From assembly GCA_029288895.1 (NCBI GenBank), contig JARIGK010000001.1, forward strand, positions 134,682 through 198,681: a stretch of DNA of 64,000 nucleotides. Direction: 5' to 3'. Positions 5,538 through 39,856 of this stretch are shown piece by piece (position 1 is the first letter of the stretch; each line of letters opens with the position of its first letter). This DNA comes from Candidatus Adlerbacteria bacterium. Lineage in GTDB: Bacteria > Patescibacteriota > Minisyncoccia > Phycocordibacterales > SBAW01. Made by a program: the position numbers and the translations under genes. Under the pieces are notes generated by a model. That model was not told where the DNA came from and searched no databases. It was given only the letters and a program-made list of their open reading frames with translations.

Positions 5538-6797
5538 ATGGCAAAAACTAAGAAGGCGACCAAAAAGAAGGTGGCCAAGGCAGCGAAACGTCCCAAAGGG
5601 AACGTTGCCAAGGCGAAGAAATTCCGCGACGTTGCAGCAAAACGCCGCGCTAAACTTGTGCCCAAAAAAGCCCCTGCCAAAAAGGTAAAGGCCGCAGCTG
5701 CACCGAAGGTTAACCCTGCAGCTGCCAAAAAACAGAACGATCAAAACAAAAAAGCAGAACAGTTGATGGCGTCGGGCCGCCAGCGCGGCTTCGTTACGTA
5801 TGACGAAATTTTGAAGGCTTTCCCTAACATCGAAACCGATGTCGATTTCTTGGAAGAACTCTACGATAAATTCTCGACCGCACACATCGACGTGCTCGAA
5901 GGCGGCGGCATGCTCGAAATCGAAAGCGAGCCGCTCGAAAAAGGCTACTCTCGTAGCGATTCCAACTACGACTCTATCCAGATGTACCTGCGCGAAATTG
6001 GCCGCTACCCGCTGCTTAACGCGCAGCAGGAGCGCGACTACGCAAAGCGCATCGTCGAGGGCGACAACGAGGCGCGTAACTTGCTTGCACGCGCAAACCT
6101 CCGCCTCGTCGTTTCTATCGCAAAGAAGTATGTAGGCCGCTCACCAGACCTCACCCTCTTGGACCTCATACAAGAAGGTAACTTGGGCCTCTTTAAGGCC
6201 GTCGATAAATTCGACTACACCAAGGGCTACAAATTCTCGACCTATGCCACCTGGTGGATCCGCCAGGCTATTACGCGTGCCTTGGCCGACCAGAGCCGCA
6301 CCATCCGCATTCCGGTCCACATGGTGGAAACTATCGCGAAATACAAGCAGGTTTCGCGCCGCCTCTCACAAGACTTGGGCCGCGACCCGCTTGCAGAAGA
6401 AATCGCACTTGAAATGGGTGTCGATGTCGACAAAATCTACCAAATAGAAAAGATCGACCAGGACACTGTCTCCTTGGAAAGCCCAGTTGGCTCAGACGAT
6501 GATGACGGTAAGTCAGTACTTGGCGACTTTATCAAAGACGACAAAATCTTGTCACCTGACCAGGAAGTCTCGCGCCGCATCTTGGGCGACCAGCTGCACG
6601 AAATCCTCGACGAGCTTTCTCCAAAAGAACGCGAAATCCTCAAACTCCGCCATGGCTTGGAAGATGGCATTTACCACACGCTCGAAGAGGTGGGCAAGAA
6701 GTTTGGCGTCACACGCGAACGTATCCGCCAAATCGAAGCAAAAGCCCTCGAGCGTATCCGCACGCACGACAAAGCAAAACGCCTCCGCAGCTACTAA
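5538..6797 (+). CDS. rpoD: RNA polymerase sigma-70 factor RpoD with a lysine-rich N-terminal extension
   Basis: Regions 1.2-4 are conserved ([43 protein letters not shown]). Residues 1-80 are histone-H1-like Lys/Ala-rich repeats. Confidence 0.9.
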
Positions 6798-28256: not shown

Positions 28257-30326
28257 TCACCCTTCGACCGAGGCGGCGGCTGTGGAGGAGAGTGCTTTTT
28301 TGAATGCCTTCTCTAATTCTTTGAGGCCCACGGGTTTGGTGAGATGATAGTGGAAACCTGCTTCGTGCGCTTTTTCTTTATCTTCTGTTTGGCCGTAGCC
28401 GGTAAGAGCGATAAGCGCTGCGTTTGTTGCGTTGTCTTGTTTCAAGCGGCGCACTACTTCGTAGCCGTCGATGTCGGGCAAGCCAATGTCGAGCACAAGG
28501 ATGTCATGGTCGGCCATACGTGCCGCTTCGAGCGCGGCCAACCCCGAGTAGGCCACGTGTACTTCATGACCGCGCAACTCAAGCAGCCTCTTCAGTGCAT
28601 GCGCTGCTGCCTCGTTGTCGTCAACAACTAAGATGCTGCGTTTATTGCGCACTGCACGCAAGGTACGATTTCCTGTGCCCGTGAGTATAGGTTTTTTTGC
28701 GGGCTTCTCGACGCGACCGCGGATAAGCGGCAGGCGCACGGTAAATTCCGACCCTTTTCCTTCGCCCTCGCTTTTCACTTCAATCGTGCCGCCGTGCATC
28801 TCGACCAGCTGGCGGGTGAGCGGTAGGCCGACGCCCAAGCCCTCTGTCGGTAATTTGCCGCGTTGCACCTGGAAGAAGGGTTCGAAGATGCGCTTTTGCA
28901 TCGTGCGCGAAATACCAATACCGTTATCGCGGAGCGTAAGCACAGCCATGTTTTTATCGTCGCGAAGCGAAAGTTCGATCGTGCCGCCAGGGTTTGTATA
29001 CTTCGCTGCATTGTTTAACAGATTGACGAGTATTTGTTCGACGCGGATAGGGTCAGCTTCCATATAGAGCGGCTCTTCTGGTTTGTGTACATGCAAACGG
29101 TGGCCGCGGCTTTGGAGAAGCGGTTTGGTCGACTCAACAGAGCGGTCGACGATATCTTCGACAAAGACCACTTCTTTGCGCAGCGCCAACTTATTGCGCG
29201 AGATGCGCGATATGTCGAGTACGTCATCGAGCATGCCGCGCATCGCGTTGACGTGCTGGCCGATGGTATTAACGAGTAAGGCCGACTCGCTGTGCTCGTG
29301 GCTTTCCAAGCGCAGGAGCTCTGCAGATGAGAGAATGGCTGCCAAAGGGTTCCGTAGTTCGTGCGCCAGCATCGCAAGGAAATTTTTCTTTGCTTCGTCT
29401 TCGGAGCTAATTTTACTGAGCGTTGTCTCAAGTTCTGTCACGTGGCGTGCGAGTTCTTGTTGTGCATGTTTGCGCTCTTCGACGATTGCCGTAAAGGTCA
29501 AAAATACCGTGCCCATCGTTGCGCTAAAGATCGCAAGCTGGAAGAGCGAGCCATTGGCAAAGGGGCCGTGGCCAAGCAATGTACCGCACAGCGCAACAAG
29601 CGCGGCAAGTGCAATAGAGAGACTCATGCCGCGCGGGCCCGTGCGCAGCGCCACCCACGTCAGCGGGATAAACACGTAGTAGGTAAAGTATGAGCTTTGC
29701 GGCAGCCAAAAAATAAACAGCGACGTGGCAAAGACGAGCAGGGTAAGCAGCGTAAGTTCGATGTATTGGCCGGCCGTACGCTCAAATCGCGGGCGAGAGA
29801 ACCACTTCAACAAGAGCGGTGCCAAAATAAGGATGCCCAATGCGTCGCCCGCCCACCACGCACCCCACATAGAGGGCAGCTCGGTGATGCGTCGTGCGCC
29901 GCTGGCCCACAGGCTTGCGATGCCAATGCTTGCACTCAAGAGCGGTGCAATAAACGCGGTTGCAATAATGCCGATGTTGTCACGCAGCCGAAGTAAAGAG
30001 GGTTGGAAGCCCACGTAGTAGTTTAAAAAATACGCGCCAGCGAGTGCCTCAAGTGCGTTACCTGCGCCTATCATCAGCGCGGCGAATATCGTTGCGCCGT
30101 CAGACAGGTTGACGAGTGCGGCGCCAATAAAGACTGCAGGCCAGAGCCGGTACCCCCACAGGAGAAGTGCTGCAAGTGCCACGGCGCTTGCCGGCCACAC
30201 AAACGTCGCGAAGGTGCCGACGGGTTCAATGCTTAATCCGAGACGCCCCGCCAGGAAGTAGACAAGTGTGAGAAGAATGTAGGGTTCGTATCGAAAGAAG
30301 AGGGTGATAAGGGCTCTTCTATTCAT
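28257..30326 (-). CDS. Hybrid sensor histidine kinase/response regulator (membrane sensor - HisKA - HATPase_c - REC)
   Basis: About 300 aa of multi-TM sensor domain (MASE1-like). H-box LAHELRNPL, the N/G1/G2 ATP-lid boxes, and a C-terminal receiver (LVVDDNEAAAH...DIGLPDIDG). Confidence 0.85.
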   Translation of the reverse strand: MNRRALITLFFRYEPYILLTLVYFLAGRLGLSIEPVGTFATFVWPASAVALAALLLWGYRLWPAVFIGAALVNLSDGATIFAALMIGAGNALEALAGAYFLNYYVGFQPSLLRLRDNIGIIATAFIAPLLSASIGIASLWASGARRITELPSMWGAWWAGDALGILILAPLLLKWFSRPRFERTAGQYIELTLLTLLVFATSLFIFWLPQSSYFTYYVFIPLTWVALRTGPRGMSLSIALAALVALCGTLLGHGPFANGSLFQLAIFSATMGTVFLTFTAIVEERKHAQQELARHVTELETTLSKISSEDEAKKNFLAMLAHELRNPLAAILSSAELLRLESHEHSESALLVNTIGQHVNAMRGMLDDVLDISRISRNKLALRKEVVFVEDIVDRSVESTKPLLQSRGHRLHVHKPEEPLYMEADPIRVEQILVNLLNNAAKYTNPGGTIELSLRDDKNMAVLTLRDNGIGISRTMQKRIFEPFFQVQRGKLPTEGLGVGLPLTRQLVEMHGGTIEVKSEGEGKGSEFTVRLPLIRGRVEKPAKKPILTGTGNRTLRAVRNKRSILVVDDNEAAAHALKRLLELRGHEVHVAYSGLAALEAARMADHDILVLDIGLPDIDGYEVVRRLKQDNATNAALIALTGYGQTEDKEKAHEAGFHYHLTKPVGLKELEKAFKKALSSTAAASVEG

Positions 30327-30332
30327 GCGCTG

Positions 30333-31007
30333 TTATGCGACAAATCGGTATCCGACGCCGCGCACTGTTTCAAAGCGGGGCGACATTTCTGTGCGTTCGA
30401 GTTTTTTGCGCAAGTTTTTCATGTGGACGTCGAGCACGTTGCTCCACGTCATAGAGTTAAAGTCCCACACATGGCTCGAGAGTTCTTCGCGGGTAAATAC
30501 TTCGCCTGGGCGGCGCAAGAAACATTCAAGTAGTGCGTATTCTTTCAGCGTAAGAGAAATTTCTTCACCATCGACATAGACTTTGTGCGTTGCAGTGTCG
30601 ATGGTAATGTCGCCGACCGTATGCACGACGGTGGGCATGGTTTGCGGGCGGCGGGAGACTGATGCGATGCGGGCAATAAGTTCTTCGTGTGAAAAGGGTT
30701 TGACGACGTAGTCATCGGCACCAGCGTTCAGGAGCTCCACTTTGGTAGTGGTGTCGGACGAGCCAGTCAAAATAATGATAGGGGTCTTGATCTCCGCTTC
30801 GCGGATTTTTTTGGTCAACGCCAGGCCGCCCATGCCAGGGAGCCCCAAGTCCATAATCATCACGCCGTAGTCGGTGTGGTAGAGCTGGGCGCGGGTAAAA
30901 GCTTTGTCGCCGTCATCGACCCAGTCCACTGCAAAACCCTTTAATTCTAATATCTTGGTAAGGTTAGCCCCGAGCTGCTGCTCGTCTTCGACAAGTAGTA
31001 ATCTCAT
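30333..31007 (-). CDS. OmpR-family response regulator (REC + winged-helix)
   Basis: MRLLLVEDEQQL...DLGLPGMGG receiver, and a C-terminal trans_reg_C (ETVRGVGYRF). Confidence 0.9.
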   Translation of the reverse strand: MRLLLVEDEQQLGANLTKILELKGFAVDWVDDGDKAFTRAQLYHTDYGVMIMDLGLPGMGGLALTKKIREAEIKTPIIILTGSSDTTTKVELLNAGADDYVVKPFSHEELIARIASVSRRPQTMPTVVHTVGDITIDTATHKVYVDGEEISLTLKEYALLECFLRRPGEVFTREELSSHVWDFNSMTWSNVLDVHMKNLRKKLERTEMSPRFETVRGVGYRFVA

Positions 31008-31016
31008 ATATACAGC

Positions 31017-31163
31017 CTACTCTATAGAGGTCTCCATGAACATATCATGAAGAAAGTATTTTTCGGTAGCCTGTAAGGCTTCTTCGCGGTTTTTGCACTC
31101 ACGGCAAAAGCGGGCGAATACCTCGTCCGCTTCACGCTCAAATCGTGCCAGATATGGTTCCAT
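31017..31163 (-). CDS. Small CxxC protein (48 aa), hypothetical
   Basis: MEPYLARFEREADEVFARFCRECKNREEALQATEKYFLHDMFMETSIE. Its ATG overlaps the 3' end of the upstream 64-aa gene and it ends 10 bp before the RR start. Confidence 0.3.
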   Translation of the reverse strand: MEPYLARFEREADEVFARFCRECKNREEALQATEKYFLHDMFMETSIE

Positions 31164-31332: not shown

Positions 31333-31357
31333 ACAGTATAGAAGGGGGCGGGTGATA

Positions 31358-31564
31358 TTAAAGTGAAGACCTAACGTCGTCGACGCGTTGCTTCAAAAGC
31401 TGCTCCATGTCGGTAATAGCTTTGGTGATTTCTTTTGCAGTGTCATGCGCTTCGCCGCTTTTGCCTTCGAGTAAGAGCTCCAATAATTGCGCTTGGCTGT
31501 AGAGCACCGACAGCGCATTGCGCAGGTCGTGGTTGAGCTTTGAAATCTTTTCTGGCAATTCCAT
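31358..31564 (-). CDS. Stand-alone DHp/HisKA-like mini-protein (69 aa) with an H-box
   Basis: MELPEKISKLNHDLRNALSVLYSQAQLLELLLEG...; NHDLRNAL matches the HisKA H-box. TATACT lies about 12 nt upstream of the ATG. The upstream part of the track ORF looks non-coding. Confidence 0.35.
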   Translation of the reverse strand: MELPEKISKLNHDLRNALSVLYSQAQLLELLLEGKSGEAHDTAKEITKAITDMEQLLKQRVDDVRSSL

Positions 31565-33291: not shown

Positions 33292-35352
33292 TTATCCTTG
33301 CACACGGCCCAGCGCCGTTTGAAGATCGCTGAGGCTAATAGGCTTAACGAGGTATTGGTCGAACCATTCGCGCGCATCCATGCGTCGCGAATCGCCCAGC
33401 CCATAGCCCGTCAGTGCGATAAGAGTGCCGCGATAGTTCTGGCCTCGCAGCATGCGCGCCACGTCGTAGCCGTCCTGGTCGGGGAGGCCGATATCCAAGA
33501 AGATGAGGTCGGGCGAAATGCTGCGTGCTTTGGCGAGACCCTGCGCACCATCGTAGGCGTACTGCACGCGTGCACCGTGGAGTTCGAGCAGGCGCCCAAT
33601 GCCGGCCGCCGCGGCATCATTGTCGTCGATAATAAGGACAAGCGGTTGTTTTGATTTGGGTTGGGACCCTGGCGTGCGGATATCCGTGGCGCGCGCCTCG
33701 CGTTTTGGAAGCATCGTGTTGCCCGAGCGCATCAGCGGTATAGTCACTACAAAGCGGCTGCCGAGCCCGGCGCCATCGCTGTATGCCTCGATGGTGCCGC
33801 CGTGGAGTTCGACGAAGTTGCGTACGAGTGTAAGCCCAATGCCGAGACCTTTTTTATTGCGCGCATCTTGCTCGACCTGGTGGAAGGGGAGGAAGATGGT
33901 CTCAAGTTCGTTCGGGCGAATACCAATGCCGCGGTCGGACACTTCGATGCTTGCATTGTGGCCCTCTTCGCGCATCGAAAGCGTAATTGTTGTACCCGAT
34001 GGCGAGTATTTCGACGCGTTCGTCAGCAAGTTGGAAAACACTTGCTCCAAACGCACTGCGTCGCCAAGCACATGGAGTTGCTGTTTTGGCATATTCAACA
34101 CCAAACGCTGATGCAATTCTTTGCGGTGATGTTCGGTCGAAAGCACAGCGCGTTTCAGTACGACATCGAGCGATACCTGTTCGCGCTTCAAATCGACTTT
34201 GCCTTCCGAAATGCGGGAGATGTCGAGGAGGTCGTCGAGCAGGCGGCGGATAGTGTCCATCCGGTTTTCCATCATGGTAAGCAATTCGGTATCTTCTGCG
34301 TCGCGGCCGCCTTTTAATTTCATCAAATCGATGGATGAAATAACAGGCGCCAGCGGGTTGCGCAATTCGTGCGACAAAATGGCAATAAAATCATTTTTTG
34401 CTTTCGACTCTGAACTTTCGCGCGCCACAGCGTTGCGAAGTGTTGCCAACTGCGAGTGCATGATGTTGGTGTTGACGCGGCGATCTTCTTCAAGCGAGGT
34501 GATGATAAAAAAGAGCAGCGTGAGCATGATCAGCAACAGTTCTGTCTGGAATAGGTAGTCGACAACTAGGGGGGCTGGCGAATACAGTGCAACGCTCGTA
34601 ATGGCAAAGCATGAGGTGAGTAGCAGTGCGAGCGTAATAAATCGCGGCCGCATTTTAAGTGCGATGTAGAAGAGGGGTGCCATCAAAAAATATACCGTCG
34701 GAATGCCGCCAAGCGTCCCCATTTGGCGGACAAACAGCAAGTAGTCGAGCCCAAGCAGCGCCACGAAGACAAGTACGAGCTCGACCATTTCGCCAGCGTT
34801 GCGCGAAAAGCGCGGCTTGGCCAACCAGCGCAGCAAGAACGGCGTCATGATAAGGAAGCAGAAGAGTGTCGCGACATAGGAATGCTCCCACGTAAGCCCT
34901 AAATCGGAGAGGCCGCGATATGCGCGCACCAAAAGTCCGAGCGTTGGCGAAATAAGAGAGATGCACACTGCTGTTGCCATAAAGAAGAACGTGTCGCGAT
35001 ACCGTCGGAAGAGCGGGTCGATGCGTGCCTCAAGCAAGAGCCATGCACCCGCCAACCCTTGCAACACTTCAAATATCGGCAAGAAAATAATTGAAAGGAG
35101 AGAGCCGCCTGTCGCGATGTTTGCGACAAGCGCCGAAAGGTAGACGACGGGCCATAGGCGCGTACCGGCGAAGTAGAGTGCGGCCAGTGCGATGCCCGAT
35201 GCCGGGTTAAAGCGGGCCATGGGTGGAAGCACGACGCGAGCAAGCGCAAAGACAGCAACATAGAACACAAACAGGGCTGCTGCCGCGCGCCATTCGCGGA
35301 TACTATAGACTCCCGCTAATGCCCGGAGGCGTTTATTCATTGCTTCTACCAT
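33292..35352 (-). CDS. Hybrid sensor histidine kinase/response regulator, paralog of 28257..30326
   Basis: Same architecture as the first hybrid HK: multi-TM sensor, H-box LSHELRNPL, HATPase_c, and a C-terminal REC (LVLIIDDNDAAA...DIGLPDQDG). Confidence 0.85.
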   Translation of the reverse strand: MVEAMNKRLRALAGVYSIREWRAAAALFVFYVAVFALARVVLPPMARFNPASGIALAALYFAGTRLWPVVYLSALVANIATGGSLLSIIFLPIFEVLQGLAGAWLLLEARIDPLFRRYRDTFFFMATAVCISLISPTLGLLVRAYRGLSDLGLTWEHSYVATLFCFLIMTPFLLRWLAKPRFSRNAGEMVELVLVFVALLGLDYLLFVRQMGTLGGIPTVYFLMAPLFYIALKMRPRFITLALLLTSCFAITSVALYSPAPLVVDYLFQTELLLIMLTLLFFIITSLEEDRRVNTNIMHSQLATLRNAVARESSESKAKNDFIAILSHELRNPLAPVISSIDLMKLKGGRDAEDTELLTMMENRMDTIRRLLDDLLDISRISEGKVDLKREQVSLDVVLKRAVLSTEHHRKELHQRLVLNMPKQQLHVLGDAVRLEQVFSNLLTNASKYSPSGTTITLSMREEGHNASIEVSDRGIGIRPNELETIFLPFHQVEQDARNKKGLGIGLTLVRNFVELHGGTIEAYSDGAGLGSRFVVTIPLMRSGNTMLPKREARATDIRTPGSQPKSKQPLVLIIDDNDAAAAGIGRLLELHGARVQYAYDGAQGLAKARSISPDLIFLDIGLPDQDGYDVARMLRGQNYRGTLIALTGYGLGDSRRMDAREWFDQYLVKPISLSDLQTALGRVQG

Positions 35353-35379
35353 AGCTCTATCGTAGAAAAATGCAAAAGA

Positions 35380-35410
35380 CTCGGGGTCGCACGATGTGCA
35401 ATACCCCGAG
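35380..35410 (-). terminator. Putative intrinsic terminator between the surface-protein genes and the hybrid kinase
   Basis: CTCGGGGT - 15 nt loop - ACCCCGAG, with TCTTTTGCATTTTTCT on the minus strand. Confidence 0.4.
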
Positions 35411-35431
35411 CCGTTTGCAGATTACCTGCTG

Positions 35432-35971
35432 TTATGCGGATGTTCGTTTGAGGAGATAGCCCGCGCTCCCAAGAACCGCTACCCCAGAAAGGATGAGCGA
35501 AATGATAGTGGGGAGTGGGTCACCGCCCTCGCCCGTGTTTGGGACCCCAGGAATGGCTGTGGTCGATGTGCCCAATACTACGCCGCCCGAGCCCGAGGAG
35601 CCGCCTGTGGTGCTTGGCGTATTGGTGATGATGCCACCACCACCGCCCCCGCCACCGCCGCCAGACGAGCTACTGCCGCCGCCTGAACTTGGTGAGCTAA
35701 CGACGCTGCCGCCAAGCGAGCCTCCAGGTGAGGATGTTACCGTGCCGCCAAGCGAGCCGCCCGATGACGTTGCGACGCTACCGCTAAGGCTGGAACCCGT
35801 CGTGCTTGCGCTTGGGGTGCTCGTTGTTGTTGTCGATGTCGTCGTCGTTGACGTGGACCCTCCCGCACTCAAGGTGCCGGTGATCTCGGAGGCGCTTGCG
35901 ACGCTCGCCATACTTCCTGCGATGAGCAGTGCGGAGAGAATTCGTGCTGTGCTCTTAGTCATGAGATGCAT
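35432..35971 (-). CDS. Secreted Ser/Thr/Gly-rich protein with a C-terminal sortase-type sorting signal (VPNTG + TM + KRTSA)
   Basis: Signal peptide. Low-complexity T/S/G tracts including G12. C-terminus is AIPGVPNTGEGGDPLPTIISLILSGVAVLGSAGYLLKRTSA. Confidence 0.5.
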   Translation of the reverse strand: MHLMTKSTARILSALLIAGSMASVASASEITGTLSAGGSTSTTTTSTTTTSTPSASTTGSSLSGSVATSSGGSLGGTVTSSPGGSLGGSVVSSPSSGGGSSSSGGGGGGGGGGIITNTPSTTGGSSGSGGVVLGTSTTAIPGVPNTGEGGDPLPTIISLILSGVAVLGSAGYLLKRTSA

Positions 35972-35995
35972 TGCGTTTACTTGCTAATACGATTG

Positions 35996-37105
35996 TTAGA
36001 ACGGAGTTGTGGTCGACATTGCGCCGAAGGTTGTCGTGTAGTTGCCAGTTGGCGTACCAGACGGTACTGCTGCCTGGATGTAGACATCGATCTGGCGTCC
36101 CGGCGTTGTCGACGAGGTGTCACCGACGAGCATCATGTTGCCGCTGTAGTCGTTATTTGCCTCAAGCATCGAGGACGCGGTGGTCGATGCGTTCGATGAC
36201 TGTGGAGACCAGATGCGGATGTGATTTGCTGTCGCAAAGGTTGTCGACGAATTTGCCGTGTTGATGAAGTCGCCGAACTTCATAGCGAAGTTGCTTTCGG
36301 TGTCCGGAACAACGAGGTGGAGTATCCACTCCCACCCATGCTCAAACGTTCCATCTGCTGTGGCGCTCGTCTGCACGCTGTCGACACCTGTCACTGCAAG
36401 TGGAGTAGTTGATGTTGATGTCGTTGTTGTGCTCGTGCTCGAAGATACTGGTTGCACGTAGTAGGAGTTTGATGCCATGAGGCCACTCGTGCGGCCAGTT
36501 GCCGTGATCGCTGCCGGGCCCACTGCAAGTGACGGCACTGTCATGCTCTGTGTAAAGTTGCCGCTTGCGTCAGCAGAAACGGTCGTTGTTGCGCCGCCGA
36601 ACATAATGTCGACTTGCTCGGACGAATTGAAGTTTGTACCGAGCGCGTTGAACATGGAACCTGGTTCGCCGCTGTAGGAGCTCAGCGCCAAGAACGCGGT
36701 TGATGTTGCAGCCGGCGTGTAGCTGAAGGTCAGCATGTTGGATGCCACGTTGCCCGTCGATGATGCGGTCGACGACGAAACATCAGCACCGACCATAACC
36801 GTCACTGTGCCCGACGCCGTTGGCATCACGTTGAAGGTAAACGTCGTGCCGCTGCCCGACACTGTGCCAACGGTGGCATTAGTTGCCGTGATGTTCGCAC
36901 TGGTGAGGCCGTTTACCGCTTGCGAGAACGTTGCAGTGACGGGGATAGTCGTCGCTGACGTACTCGAGGAGACGGTCGAAGAAAGAACTACCGTTGGGCC
37001 GCCCGAGGCTGCCGACGAGAGGGATGCCAAACCTCCAAGTACTGCAACCGCCGCTATCATGGCGACTGCCATGCTTGAAAGTATCCCGATAGATTTTGCT
37101 TTCAT
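35996..37105 (-). CDS. Secreted S/T-rich surface protein (Ig-like repeats), hypothetical
   Basis: Signal peptide (MKAKSIGILSSMAVAMIAAVAVLGG); 369 aa rich in S/T/A/N. No C-terminal sorting signal. Confidence 0.45.
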   Translation of the reverse strand: MKAKSIGILSSMAVAMIAAVAVLGGLASLSSAASGGPTVVLSSTVSSSTSATTIPVTATFSQAVNGLTSANITATNATVGTVSGSGTTFTFNVMPTASGTVTVMVGADVSSSTASSTGNVASNMLTFSYTPAATSTAFLALSSYSGEPGSMFNALGTNFNSSEQVDIMFGGATTTVSADASGNFTQSMTVPSLAVGPAAITATGRTSGLMASNSYYVQPVSSSTSTTTTSTSTTPLAVTGVDSVQTSATADGTFEHGWEWILHLVVPDTESNFAMKFGDFINTANSSTTFATANHIRIWSPQSSNASTTASSMLEANNDYSGNMMLVGDTSSTTPGRQIDVYIQAAVPSGTPTGNYTTTFGAMSTTTPF

Positions 37106-37167
37106 ATAGTAATACCTAATACCTAGTTAATAAGTTTCGAACGAGGCTTCAGTAAAACAGGCGAGTA

Positions 37168-37205
37168 GTGAACGCTCGGTGAAAAGCCGCGTGAAGCACT
37201 TCACG
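37168..37205. promoter_or_regulatory. Direct-repeat array (GTGAA x3 at 11-12 bp spacing) ending in the 16-bp palindrome CGTGAAGCACTTCACG
   Basis: Lies in the divergent intergenic region between the surface-protein gene (start 37105) and the sortase gene (start 37238). Confidence 0.35.
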
Positions 37206-37237
37206 ATTGCTTTATAAAAAACCCGCACACTAGGTAT

Positions 37238-37840
37238 GTGTCAGCACGAATACCATATGGTGCAGCGATAGCCGTCATTGTTGTGGCGGCGTTCGTGTTT
37301 GTTTTTGTGTTGTGGCATGCAGTGTGGGGCGGCGGGGAGGAGAGCGATATCGTCCCGGCGAATATGCCTGCAGCGGTCCTTGCTGCGACAACCTCGATGC
37401 CTGCGCGTTTAGAAATACCCGTGCTGCATGTTGATGCGCGCGTGCAATACGTCGGTGTGACATCAAAAGGCACCATGGGTGTGCCGAGCAACTTTACCGA
37501 TGTTGCGTGGTACAAGTACGGCGCGGTGCCGGGGCAGGCGGGCAGCGCTGTCATGGACGGTCATGTTGATAACGCGCTGTCGTTGCCAGGGGTGTTTAAA
37601 CATTTGGCCGATATCCATGTCGGCGATGATCTCTATGTTCAAACGAATGATGGCAGCACACTGCACTTCCGTGTGTACGATGTCGAGACGTACCCGTACG
37701 ACCAGGTGCCGATGCAAACCGTGTTTGCACAAACGCGCGATGCGCACCTCACGCTTATCACGTGCGGCGGTACCTGGGTGCAAAGCAAAAAAACGTACGA
37801 CCATCGCGTGGTGGTGTACTCGGCATTGGTGGGGAGTTAA
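37238..37840 (+). CDS. Sortase (class E/F-like transpeptidase)
   Basis: N-terminal TM anchor, LEIPVLHVDARV, catalytic His (MDGHVDN), TLxTC (LTLITCGG), and Arg (RVVVYSAL). GTG start. Confidence 0.8.
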   Translation: MSARIPYGAAIAVIVVAAFVFVFVLWHAVWGGGEESDIVPANMPAAVLAATTSMPARLEIPVLHVDARVQYVGVTSKGTMGVPSNFTDVAWYKYGAVPGQAGSAVMDGHVDNALSLPGVFKHLADIHVGDDLYVQTNDGSTLHFRVYDVETYPYDQVPMQTVFAQTRDAHLTLITCGGTWVQSKKTYDHRVVVYSALVGS

Positions 37841-38376
37841 CGGCGCGCGAGCGAGGATTGTTGCGTACCAAAAAATTCGACGATGATGGTTGTTTGTTTG
37901 CCTTGGTAGATTCCGCGTGCGATGCCGATACCCATATCTTTGTACTTCGCGTTGATGATATTTGCGCGGTGCGTTGGCGAATTCATCCATGCCATTTCGA
38001 CACTCGCGGCGTCAGAAAAATCCATCGCTAAATTTTCTGCGGCATAGAGGTATGTGTAGCCATTTTGTATAAACCATTTCCATGGCGCCTGGCCCTCGGG
38101 GGATGTGTGCGAGAAATACTGGCGGGCGAGCATATCGTCGGCGCGTTTTTGTGCAGCCTGGTCGAGCAGCGCATTATCTTTCACGGCGCCGATGTGCTGC
38201 GAAGCACGGTCAGTATTGGTGAGTGTAATAATTTGGCTGGCGAGCGCTGTGTCTAGAGGAGGCCGTGTTTGTACCTGCGCAAGTACAGGGATTGGCCCTG
38301 CAGTAAAAAATGCGAGAGCGAAAAGAAAGGTCGAGAAAGAGGAGAGTGTGCGCGAATACATGAGAGTACTCATCAA
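37837..38376 (-). CDS. CAP/SCP/PR-1-like secreted protein
   Basis: Signal peptide. NTDRASQHIGAVKDNALLDQAAQKRADDMLARQYFSHTSPEG...HRANIINAKYKDMGIGIARG is the typical CAP-domain pattern. Confidence 0.7.
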   Translation of the reverse strand: MMSTLMYSRTLSSFSTFLFALAFFTAGPIPVLAQVQTRPPLDTALASQIITLTNTDRASQHIGAVKDNALLDQAAQKRADDMLARQYFSHTSPEGQAPWKWFIQNGYTYLYAAENLAMDFSDAASVEMAWMNSPTHRANIINAKYKDMGIGIARGIYQGKQTTIIVEFFGTQQSSLARR

Positions 38377-38439
38377 TTGTAGATGAGTTCATACTCAATT
38401 CATATTCACATCGATGAAGAGGTCAGCTAGATGAAGAGC

Positions 38440-38967
38440 CTAGCGAAAGATTTTTTTCGAGAGCCACACAAAAGCAGCGCCAGTAAGAATGCCAAGTACT
38501 ATGCCGCCGAGGATATCAGACGGGTAGTGCACACCTGCGGCAACGCGCGCGGCACCGATAAGGAGGCCTGTTGCCATGAGCGCCCACCCAAACTTTTTAT
38601 TGAAGTGAAGAATGACCGTTGCGAGCGCGAACATAAATATGGTGTGGCCCGATGGAAAGGAATACGCCGAGTCCGCCACCAGATGGGGGATGTTGAGTGC
38701 AGAAAATGGACGTGCGCGGTGCCAGAAGTGGCGTATGAGGGATGCAATGCCGTAGCGTGCAACGAGCGCTGCCACAAGTGCAAGGCAATAGCCCATGACA
38801 TGTTCGCGTTCGCCTTTCTTCCACGCGAGTGCGAATGCTGCCACTACGCCAAGCAGCACAGCGTAGATGAGATATTCGGCGCAGACGATGATCGCCGTAT
38901 CAAGAAGCGCGCTCTGTCCTGCGAGGTTGTGGAGTGCGTAGAAGAGTGAGAGGTCGAGTTGCTGCAT
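38440..38967 (-). CDS. PAP2-family phosphatase (undecaprenyl-diphosphatase-like)
   Basis: KX6RP (HRARPF), PSGH, and SRX5HX3D-like (GVHYPSD) motifs; 4-5 TM helices. Confidence 0.75.
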   Translation of the reverse strand: MQQLDLSLFYALHNLAGQSALLDTAIIVCAEYLIYAVLLGVVAAFALAWKKGEREHVMGYCLALVAALVARYGIASLIRHFWHRARPFSALNIPHLVADSAYSFPSGHTIFMFALATVILHFNKKFGWALMATGLLIGAARVAAGVHYPSDILGGIVLGILTGAAFVWLSKKIFR

Positions 38968-38973
38968 ATGTCG

Positions 38974-39369
38974 TTAGTGGAAGTACCCGAGGATCGCGGC
39001 ACCCGCGATAATCGTGATGAGGCTGCTGAAGATGCCAAGCCAGAATACGGTCATTTTGCCGCCCCAGAGTGCGTCACCCAATTTCATCGGGGCGATAAAG
39101 CCAACCCATGCCCAGACACCAATAGCAATGGCATTGAGAGGCGAGAGGCCTTGCGTTGCGCGCGCAAGCACATAGAACATCACCAAGCTTGCGATAAATT
39201 GCCAGATGTAGCTTGTGGCCATAGCCTTCTGCATCTGTTTTTTTTCTGCGGTACTCTTGTTTTCCCAACCCATGGCGCGAATATAGACTTTGCCAAAGAG
39301 CGGGCCGTACCAGAGAGCGCCTATAACCATGGAAGCGACCGCAGCCGCCAGAATCGCGATGTAGTTCAT
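38974..39369 (-). CDS. DUF1761-family membrane protein
   Basis: ALWYGPLFGK N-terminal signature; 131 aa with four TM helices. Confidence 0.5.
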   Translation of the reverse strand: MNYIAILAAAVASMVIGALWYGPLFGKVYIRAMGWENKSTAEKKQMQKAMATSYIWQFIASLVMFYVLARATQGLSPLNAIAIGVWAWVGFIAPMKLGDALWGGKMTVFWLGIFSSLITIIAGAAILGYFH

Positions 39370-39373
39370 ATAG

Positions 39374-39856
39374 TTATGCTAGCACGGGGCTGCACGAATT
39401 GCAGAGGCAGCCTTTTGGCTTGATAAATTCGTCAAAATACTCGGTATCGTAGTCGTAGGTGAGCTCCTCGCCGGGCTTAATAGTTCGCTTTGCGAAGATA
39501 AAGACGCGTTTGTTTTTAATGTCGATTTCGCAGTTGGGTTTGCAGGCATGGTTCACATACTTGGCGATGTTGCCCGGCACGTTGCCATCGATCATCGAGT
39601 GTTTGCCCGTCTCGAAAAAGTACTTGCCACTTTTGTTGTGCTGCTCCCAGTCGTTGAGTGCGCGGCCAGTGTATTCGAGTATGCAGGCACCTTTCGGGAT
39701 TTTTTCTTCAGCAAATACGCCCTTTCCGGTGCGTGATTTTCCAACGCGCACCTTAAAATCCCCCGGCGTAAATCTCTTCGGTAATTTTTTCATCCAAACA
39801 GTATACATCTTAAGTAAATCTTCATAATTCGACTGATACCCTTCTTTATACATCAA
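39374..39856 (-). CDS. SET-domain protein lysine methyltransferase
   Basis: GKGVFA...IPKGACILEYTG...NHACKPNC...IFAKRTIKPGEELTYDY, plus a post-SET CLCNSC. Confidence 0.8.
   Translation of the reverse strand: MMYKEGYQSNYEDLLKMYTVWMKKLPKRFTPGDFKVRVGKSRTGKGVFAEEKIPKGACILEYTGRALNDWEQHNKSGKYFFETGKHSMIDGNVPGNIAKYVNHACKPNCEIDIKNKRVFIFAKRTIKPGEELTYDYDTEYFDEFIKPKGCLCNSCSPVLA

Follow-up and report, generated by a model that had tools for sequence, protein, structure and literature searches.

In a stretch of 64,000 nucleotides from a Candidatus Adlerbacteria bacterium (called the window in the following), we analysed a short repeat element located in the 132-bp intergenic region from which a class F sortase gene on the plus strand and the gene of a secreted Big_12-domain protein on the minus strand diverge. 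Two GTGAA repeats of this region, which read TTCAC-N6-TTCAC on the minus strand (referred to as the box), are probably the binding site of a response regulator of the OmpR/PhoB family, encoded at 30333-31007, which would activate the surface-protein genes in a PhoB-like manner. An initial annotation of this DNA had proposed two-component control of surface-protein and sortase expression. Comparison with related sequences supports this proposal: the box is conserved, its enrichment is specific for the N6 spacing and for the strand, and it precedes the regulator gene in every ortholog examined. Directly established are the conserved motif, its geometry, its specificity for strand and position, and its association with the regulator gene.

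Conservation and enrichment of the tandem repeats

The initial annotation described three GTGAA copies at 11-12 bp spacing, and they are indeed present on the plus strand: the copy at 37179-37183 lies 11 bp from that at 37168-37172 and 12 bp from that at 37191-37195. No further pair of the form GTGAA-N5-7-GTGAA was found on either strand of the 64-kb window, which has a G+C content of 51.5%. For triples of any pentamer at 10-12 bp spacing, a second-order Markov model predicts about 0.9 occurrences per 64 kb; the window contains three, two of them inside coding sequence. The evidence for a non-chance origin is the comparison with relatives and not the window itself.

For this comparison, the window was aligned with the loci L081/L082 and L002 (the latter from the same genome as L163/L164), which have the divergent layout and the wider synteny in common with it. 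The two promoter-proximal GTGAA copies are kept in this four-way alignment. The first one reads CTGAA, with a single mismatch, in L081/L082 and is intact in L002, and the GGTGAAA block of the distal repeat is invariant. On the minus strand, the conserved block reads TGTTTWACTGAA. The spacers and the third copy differ among the four syntenic divergent loci. In L081/L082 and L002, the closest relatives usable for testing the third repeat, GTGAA is lost (ATGAG and CTTCC, respectively), and the hairpin formed with this copy is therefore specific to the lineage of the window. Only one other three-copy array besides that of the window was detected among 92 loci. The third GTGAA thus appears to be lineage-specific together with its hairpin, and it may at most be an accessory extension site, or else a chance match. 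Of the array proposed as a regulatory unit, two repeats are retained, but the third is not, and the functional reading appears to be TTCAC on the minus strand, serving the surface-protein promoter, rather than GTGAA on the plus strand. The plus strand has conserved blocks of its own in all four sequences, namely TTCAYG (37200-37205), TTTA (37211-37214) and CACAMT (37226-37231), with the sortase start codon following after 6-8 nt.

A wider comparison covered 80 loci encoding related sortases, comprising about 650 kb. Exact TTCAC-N6-TTCAC was observed 15 times, with 1.1 occurrences expected, and other spacings gave 0-8 matches. With the relaxed box TTCA[CT]-N6-TTCA[CTG] (TTCAY-N6-TTCAB), 59 matches were obtained at N6 versus 5-15 at the other spacings from N3 to N11. 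A first weight matrix, built from exact TTCAC sites, was blind to the TTCAT boxes in front of the regulator gene, which the relaxed pattern recovers. An apparent enrichment of TTCAC pairs at N7 (12-bp period, 8 matches) was discarded, as it mostly reflects the periodicity of coding sequence on the opposite strand. In the first kilobase upstream of the sortase genes, 38 matches lie on the sortase strand (in 37 of the 80 loci) versus 2 on the opposite strand; the control regions downstream of the sortase genes contain 5 and 0 matches. The search upstream of other genes, which the initial annotation had named as a check, therefore revealed an enrichment beyond chance that is found at N6 only, on the correct strand, and at sortase and surface-protein operons.

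The great majority of the genes directly behind the box encode small proteins with a signal peptide that end in the motif PG(T/V)PNTG(A/S)GG, followed by a transmembrane helix and an RR tail, and the sortase gene comes next. In some loci (L001, L014, L020, L038, L043), the box is located directly upstream of the sortase gene itself. The PNTG-tailed proteins are likely substrates of the class F sortase, with PNTG instead of the canonical LPXTG as core and an Arg/Lys tail. The box is confined to a coherent set of genes, comprising those for sortase substrates, sortase and regulator and the small open reading frame (ORF) found with the kinase. As a side observation, small ORFs with sorting signals lie upstream of the sortases in about 30 loci (e.g. 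L009, L017, L045), and many of them have a length of just 70-120 amino acids (aa). Their products share the PGxPNTGxGG-TM-RR type of tail with the 179-aa substrate encoded in the window.

Promoter architecture, regulator and neighbouring genes

The minus strand of the intergenic region carries, about 45 nt before the ATG of the Big_12 gene, the sequence TTCAC-N6-TTCAC-N11-TGtTTTACT. A comparable arrangement was found at 77 sites, where the second repeat leads, after 10-11 nt, to a -10-like hexamer T-w-w-A-n-T, with an upstream TG (extended -10) in about half of them. A consensus scan for sigma-70 -35/-10 pairs found no promoter between 36900 and 37400. We infer that the box stands in place of the -35 element of this surface-protein promoter (P_surf), for which a transcription start near 37144 on the minus strand is predicted. 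Just downstream of this predicted start, a GTTCGAAAC block on the minus strand (37134-37142), which includes the palindrome TTCGAA, is shared by the window with L081/L082 and L002 and may serve as a second operator or as a signal of the initially transcribed region.

For the sortase gene, a promoter on the plus strand (P_srt) is proposed. The conserved TTCACG at 37200-37205 is apparently its distal half-site. The putative -10 lies only 6-8 nt before the sortase start codon, and the sortase mRNA would therefore be leaderless. At the promoters of the regulator gene and of the small ORF, the ATG follows 6-11 nt after the hexamer in most loci (exceptions are L070, L046 and L166); this short distance speaks for the hexamer being the -10, and it implies mRNAs without a leader.

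In 12 of 12 examined orthologs of the regulator, with 49-86% identity, a box of the form TTCAT-N6-TTCAK was found about 40 nt upstream of the start codon, with differing spacer sequences. These orthologs are those of the window, L083, L084, L052, L070, L046, L163, L165, L166, L167, L168 and L169, some of which are annotated as Adlerbacteria or Uhrbacteria. The recognition helix, with the residues SNVLDVHMKNLRKK, is identical where the box is conserved. A paralog in L031 (40% identity) has a different recognition helix and is not preceded by the box. The closest relative of the regulator is encoded in L169, on a stretch without a sortase gene. Among solved structures, the OmpR/PhoB-family members DrrD, MtrA, RegX3 and KdpE are closest, with a modest similarity by which orthology to PhoP is not established. 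In Parcubacteria the regulator family comprises more than 120 clusters at a threshold of at least 60% identity, and nearly all members are exactly 224 aa long. A metagenome scan with the regulator delivered two close relatives; the remaining matches were generic OmpR-family proteins with 40% identity and were left unused. Exact look-ups with the regulator and sortase sequences of the window returned no record.

According to the initial annotation, the regulator is the only one of the OmpR type in the window. Our searches of the window confirm this, as no other winged-helix response regulator was detected in the 64 kb; the DNA-binding domains of E. coli PhoB and OmpR served as additional probes. 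The locus combines tandem half-sites at an 11-bp period, a winged-helix regulator in the same window, the box in front of the regulator gene and a position in which the box would replace the -35 element.

The two hybrid kinases named by the initial annotation were verified by domain matches as MASE1 hybrid histidine kinases, and they flank the regulator (Table 1). The kinase encoded directly downstream of the regulator gene is probably its cognate sensor, and the same pair occurs in L163, L165, L168 and L169. Homologs of the second kinase (33292-35352) adjoin a sortase gene in at least 11 loci. In many lineages MASE1 hybrid kinases are encoded beside sortase loci, and in several the regulator is as well. 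The description of the second kinase gene as co-oriented and downstream of the surface-protein genes is correct in its position, but a strong terminator in between speaks against co-transcription. This terminator was overlooked by a consensus terminator scan, apparently due to its long, partly structured loop.

Two small proteins accompany the signalling genes. A DHp-only protein of about 51-69 aa is kept beside the regulator in L163 (9511-9720), L165 (9335-9544), L168 (1418-1621) and L169 (2012-2167). For the ORF of 153 aa listed for it in the window, the 5' end is probably set too far upstream. The second one is a Cys/His protein with the pattern CxxCG[HY]...LMxK[IV]xMWNHxxxxHP, which is Cys2/His2-like; a Pfam search with this protein gave no significant match. 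Matches to it were obtained by tblastn in L046, L070, L056, L043, L064, L038 and L084, and homologs were also found in L163 and L165-L167. Its gene is almost always located directly upstream of a MASE1 hybrid kinase gene or the regulator gene, and in L046 upstream of the sortase gene. All 8 of 8 copies are preceded by TTCAY-N6-nTCAS and, after N10/11, a -10 hexamer. In L046 the leader measures about 50 nt, and the other 7 of the 8 copies have their ATG 6-8 nt behind the hexamer. The mRNA of this gene is probably leaderless, and the protein could be a partner of the signalling system.

Some observations concern the surface-protein genes and their surroundings. The closest homolog of the window's sortase shows 65% identity, and by its sortase homologs the organism falls into the Parcubacteria/Paceibacterota, near the Kaiserbacteria. 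In the Big_12 protein, the C-terminal part of about 135 aa has 72-78% identity to its counterparts in L002 (2431-2835) and L081 (1892-2305), far above the rest of the protein, which points to a functional domain, perhaps for ligand binding, that is set free or stays attached without a covalent bond. In L165 (5571-8512), where the regulator is 84% identical, the SET-DUF1761 genes are directly followed by the MASE1 kinase gene. This locus lacks the genes for CAP, sortase, Big_12 protein and second surface protein that are present in the window (33292-39856) and in L163. The sortase/surface cassette therefore acts as an insertion or deletion inside an otherwise syntenic signalling locus. In the more distant genome of L167, strict boxes were detected at 5758 (-) and 7478 (-), in front of the genes for a YggT-family membrane protein (in leaderless geometry) and for a protein of 314 aa with no known function. 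The regulon is thus probably wider than the sortase genes in some lineages.

Table 1. Genes and sequence elements of the sortase and signalling locus, in window coordinates.
Feature	Position	Strand	Remarks
MASE1 hybrid histidine kinase, encoded 6 nt behind the regulator gene	28257..30326	-	Pfam MASE1, HisKA, HATPase_c, Response_reg
OmpR/PhoB-family response regulator, 224 aa	30333..31007	-	Pfam Response_reg and Trans_reg_C
Autoregulatory box TTCAT-N6-TTCAT	31036..31051	-	-10 TAGAGT at 31019-31024 (N11), ending 11 nt before the ATG at 31007
Cys/His protein gene, 62 aa	31138..31326	-	conserved in relatives
Box of the Cys/His gene, TTCAC-N6-ATCAC-N11-TATACT	31335..31367	-	8 nt before the ATG (31326)
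Small DHp-only protein, about 69 aa	31358..31564	-	weak HisKA match; invariant HDLR H-box
Second MASE1 hybrid histidine kinase, encoded behind the surface-protein unit	33292..35352	-	profile match
Intrinsic terminator, end of the surface-protein unit	35365..35419	-	-31.9 kcal/mol, z -6.6, followed by the U-rich tail UCUUUUGCAUUUUU
Sortase substrate, 179 aa	35432..35971	-	signal peptide, Ser/Thr/Gly-rich region, IPGVPNTGEGG, transmembrane helix, KR tail
Secreted protein with Big_12 domain (369 aa), encoded first in the P_surf unit	35996..37105	-	without sorting signal
Extended -10 of P_surf, TGtTTTACT	37151..37159	-	11 nt downstream of the proximal repeat; conserved block
Proximal half-site of P_surf, TTCAC	37168..37172	-	second repeat of TTCAC-N6-TTCAC
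Distal half-site of P_surf, TTCAC	37179..37183	-	11 bp from the proximal half-site
Inverted repeat CGTGAAG-ca-CTTCACG	37190..37205		imperfect, 7-bp arms; not a conserved unit
Third GTGAA copy	37191..37195	-	12 bp from the distal repeat; lineage-specific
Putative P_srt box	37200..37215	+	conserved distal TTCAC 37200-37204, N6, degenerate proximal TTTAT 37211-37215
Putative P_srt -10	37226..37231	+	CACACT; CACAAT in relatives; CACA invariant
Class F sortase gene	37238..37840	+	Pfam Sortase 6e-23; homologs annotated as class F sortase in Paceibacterota

Proposed mechanism and alternative explanations

We propose that the regulator would be phosphorylated via the adjacent MASE1 hybrid kinases. Its phosphorylated dimer would bind the box head-to-tail at about -39 to -24 and recruit RNA polymerase. 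The P_surf box would drive the Big_12 gene and the gene of the PNTG protein as a bicistronic unit up to the terminator. The half-degenerate plus-strand box TTCAC-N6-TTTAT-N10-CACACT in the same intergenic region would be responsible for transcription of the sortase gene into a leaderless mRNA. The regulator gene and the small Cys/His ORF would be positively autoregulated by the same kind of box; autoregulation is typical of the OmpR/PhoB family, and positive autoregulation is the usual form. Hybrid kinases require a phosphotransfer step, and the DHp-only protein with its HDLR motif is a candidate for this step, from the receiver domains of the hybrid kinases to the regulator. From sequence we infer the identity of the binding protein, the activation, the transcription start sites and the phosphorelay.

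Extended to the whole group, the proposal describes a Parcubacteria-wide self-activating phosphorelay, which would run from the MASE1 kinases via the DHp-only protein to the OmpR-type regulator, with the Cys/His mini-protein as an extra component. Its output would be the display of PNTG proteins by class F sortase, transcribed from -35-less and often leaderless promoters. We put forward this extension only tentatively. If it is true, organisms thought to be poor in transcriptional regulation would possess a regulated switch of the cell surface, possibly for host attachment.

Several points weigh against the proposed activation by the regulator. Taken alone, the array of the window is within chance expectation. 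The strict box was found in only about half of the sortase loci, and in the proposed sortase promoter one of the two half-sites, the proximal one, is degenerate (TTTAT). The relaxed box has three matches in the window (0.67 expected), two of which are P_surf and the promoter of the regulator gene. The third one, TTCAT-N6-TTCAT at 38388-38403 (+), is situated between the genes for PAP2 (38440-38967, -) and CAP (37837-38376, -) and is antisense to both. No conservation of this site is seen in L081/L082 and L002, and it may be due to chance, an antisense promoter or a site working in the opposite orientation. Its assignment as promoter of an ORF at 38431-38949 was rejected, as this ORF is spurious and the real genes, PAP2 and CAP, are on the minus strand. 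These genomes may encode further OmpR-type regulators elsewhere that could recognise the same box. Finally, the preference for activation over repression is drawn solely from the missing -35 element and the analogy to the geometry of PhoB promoters.

A real, conserved operator could also have a different binder, either the small Cys/His protein or a regulator encoded elsewhere, which we consider unlikely. The Cys/His protein (CxxC...HxxxxH) has no assigned function, it co-occurs with the kinases, the regulator and the sortase, and its gene is itself preceded by the box; moreover, the sampled part of the genome amounts to 64 kb. The hallmark of OmpR/PhoB winged-helix dimers is, however, a site of tandem direct repeats with a period of 11 bp (PMC4832192). 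The box is present before all of the 12 regulator orthologs, the recognition helix tracks the box, as the differing and boxless L031 paralog illustrates, and the window holds no second winged-helix regulator that was detectable.

It is quite improbable that the regulator binds the box as a repressor, blocking the -35 region until a signal releases it. Such a role would fit the overlap of the box with the position of the -35 contact of RNA polymerase, and the extended -10 (TG) in about half of the sites could permit transcription without an activator. Nevertheless, a -35-like hexamer is missing, the geometry corresponds to class II activation of the PhoB type, as generally known, and the box lies before the regulator's own gene, where positive autoregulation would be usual.

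A function of the inverted repeat next to the box is very improbable, be it as operator of a symmetric dimer or as an RNA or DNA hairpin (terminator or attenuator). The initial annotation had described 37190-37205 as a perfect 16-bp palindrome with the last GTGAA copy as one of its arms. The sequence CGTGAAGCACTTCACG differs from its reverse complement CGTGAAGTGCTTCACG and is hence a 7-bp inverted repeat with a non-palindromic CA centre; 42 repeats with 7-bp arms and spacers of 0-4 nt are found in the window. In the three syntenic relatives (L081/L082 and L002) the right arm TTCACG is conserved, but the left arm is not. The inverted form GTGAA-N4-TTCAC has 7 matches, inside the range of 1-12 for spacers of 0-12 nt, and is unenriched at any spacing, whereas the direct N6 form has 49 matches versus 4-19 in the same comparison. 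The palindromic operator was rejected on account of the unconserved left arm, the lack of enrichment and the non-palindromic centre. As RNA, the plus strand folds with -10.2 kcal/mol (z -3), and the consensus scan flags it as terminator-like by a weak pattern match; the fold of the minus strand is indistinguishable from that of shuffled sequences. An intrinsic terminator or structured RNA was likewise rejected, as the hairpin of 6-7 bp is short and weak, the diverging flanking genes leave no upstream transcript to terminate, and an Rfam search of the region gave no relevant match.

The same very low probability is given to the view that the TTCAC repeats form a core promoter element read by a sigma factor, as an unusual -35 or an UP-like element. 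To our knowledge, the promoter architecture of Candidate Phyla Radiation (CPR) bacteria is uncharacterised, and the distance from box to -10 is fixed in dozens of promoters. Against this view, the repeats lie 10-11 and 21-22 nt from the -10 hexamer and neither of them at 16-18 nt, and the motif is limited to a small coherent gene set, with 3 strict matches in 64 kb, so it is no general promoter feature. A chance clustering of pentamers in an AT-rich intergenic region, for which the expected triples and the two further ones in coding sequence could be cited, has a negligible probability, being effectively refuted for the two proximal copies by conservation and by enrichment with controls for spacing, strand and position; for the third copy a chance origin is possible.

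Comparison with known systems

The CPR bacteria (Patescibacteria) are, as far as we know, uncultivated organisms with small genomes and few regulators, and we know of almost nothing reported on their control of gene expression. In full-text literature searches, neither regulator motifs nor a two-component control of sortases turned up for Parcubacteria or any other CPR bacteria. Here, one short motif connects the surface-decorating sortase machinery with a widely conserved two-component system and that system's own genes, across genomes of the Kaiserbacteria, Adlerbacteria, Uhrbacteria and Paceibacterota types. If the proposed activation by the regulator is true, it offers a testable regulon with operator, promoters and regulator, a promoter model (-35-less, with extended -10 and frequently leaderless) and a candidate for a signal-controlled surface or attachment programme. 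PhoB-like activation itself is textbook knowledge, and the value of these findings is in the biological context and not in a new principle.

In E. coli, the pho box has the structure TGTCA-N6-TGTCA-N11-TATAAT, replaces the -35 element and serves class II activation (e.g. of pstS), and PhoB is autoregulated. The arrangement described here resembles it in the two repeats with an 11-bp period that would replace the -35 element, in the proximal ends about 10-11 nt before the -10, and in a winged-helix binder that would be autoregulated. It differs in the half-site (TTCAY instead of TGTCA), in the sensors (MASE1 hybrid kinases instead of PhoR) and in the targets, which are sortase, its substrates and secreted proteins instead of phosphate uptake. 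Moreover, many promoters seem to be leaderless here, and the organism belongs to the CPR.

As tandem dimers, regulators of the OmpR/PhoB family occupy direct repeats that recur every 11 bp (PMC4832192). In Mycobacterium tuberculosis, PhoP recognises 7-bp TCACAGC motifs with a strict 4-bp spacer (PMC4832192), and the PhoP of Streptomyces binds direct repeat units of 11 nt with GTTCACC, in which a core of two or three units is extendable by adjacent units (PMC2691820). The core half-site with TTCAC or TCAC and the 11-nt periodicity are shared with the actinobacterial PhoP sites, and the extension units of Streptomyces could be a model for the third copy of the window. However, this copy is spaced by 12 instead of 11 nt and is not conserved, and the context of a phosphate regulon is missing. 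Membership in a Pho regulon, suggested by the GTTCACC-like core, was rejected, as the kinases are MASE1 hybrids and the genes downstream of the box are not related to phosphate; no pst genes were found in the annotated neighbourhoods examined.

In Firmicutes, control of sortase-dependent surface structures by a response regulator is reported for TCS08 and a pilus islet of pneumococci (PMC5956151) and for FpsR and the pili of Ligilactobacillus ruminis (PMC12688256). The common feature is a two-component regulator that governs, or in our case would govern, genes for sortase-anchored surface proteins. The sortases belong to classes A and C there and to class F here, phyla and regulators are different, and the link in the present case is predicted from operator and gene neighbourhood instead of genetics.

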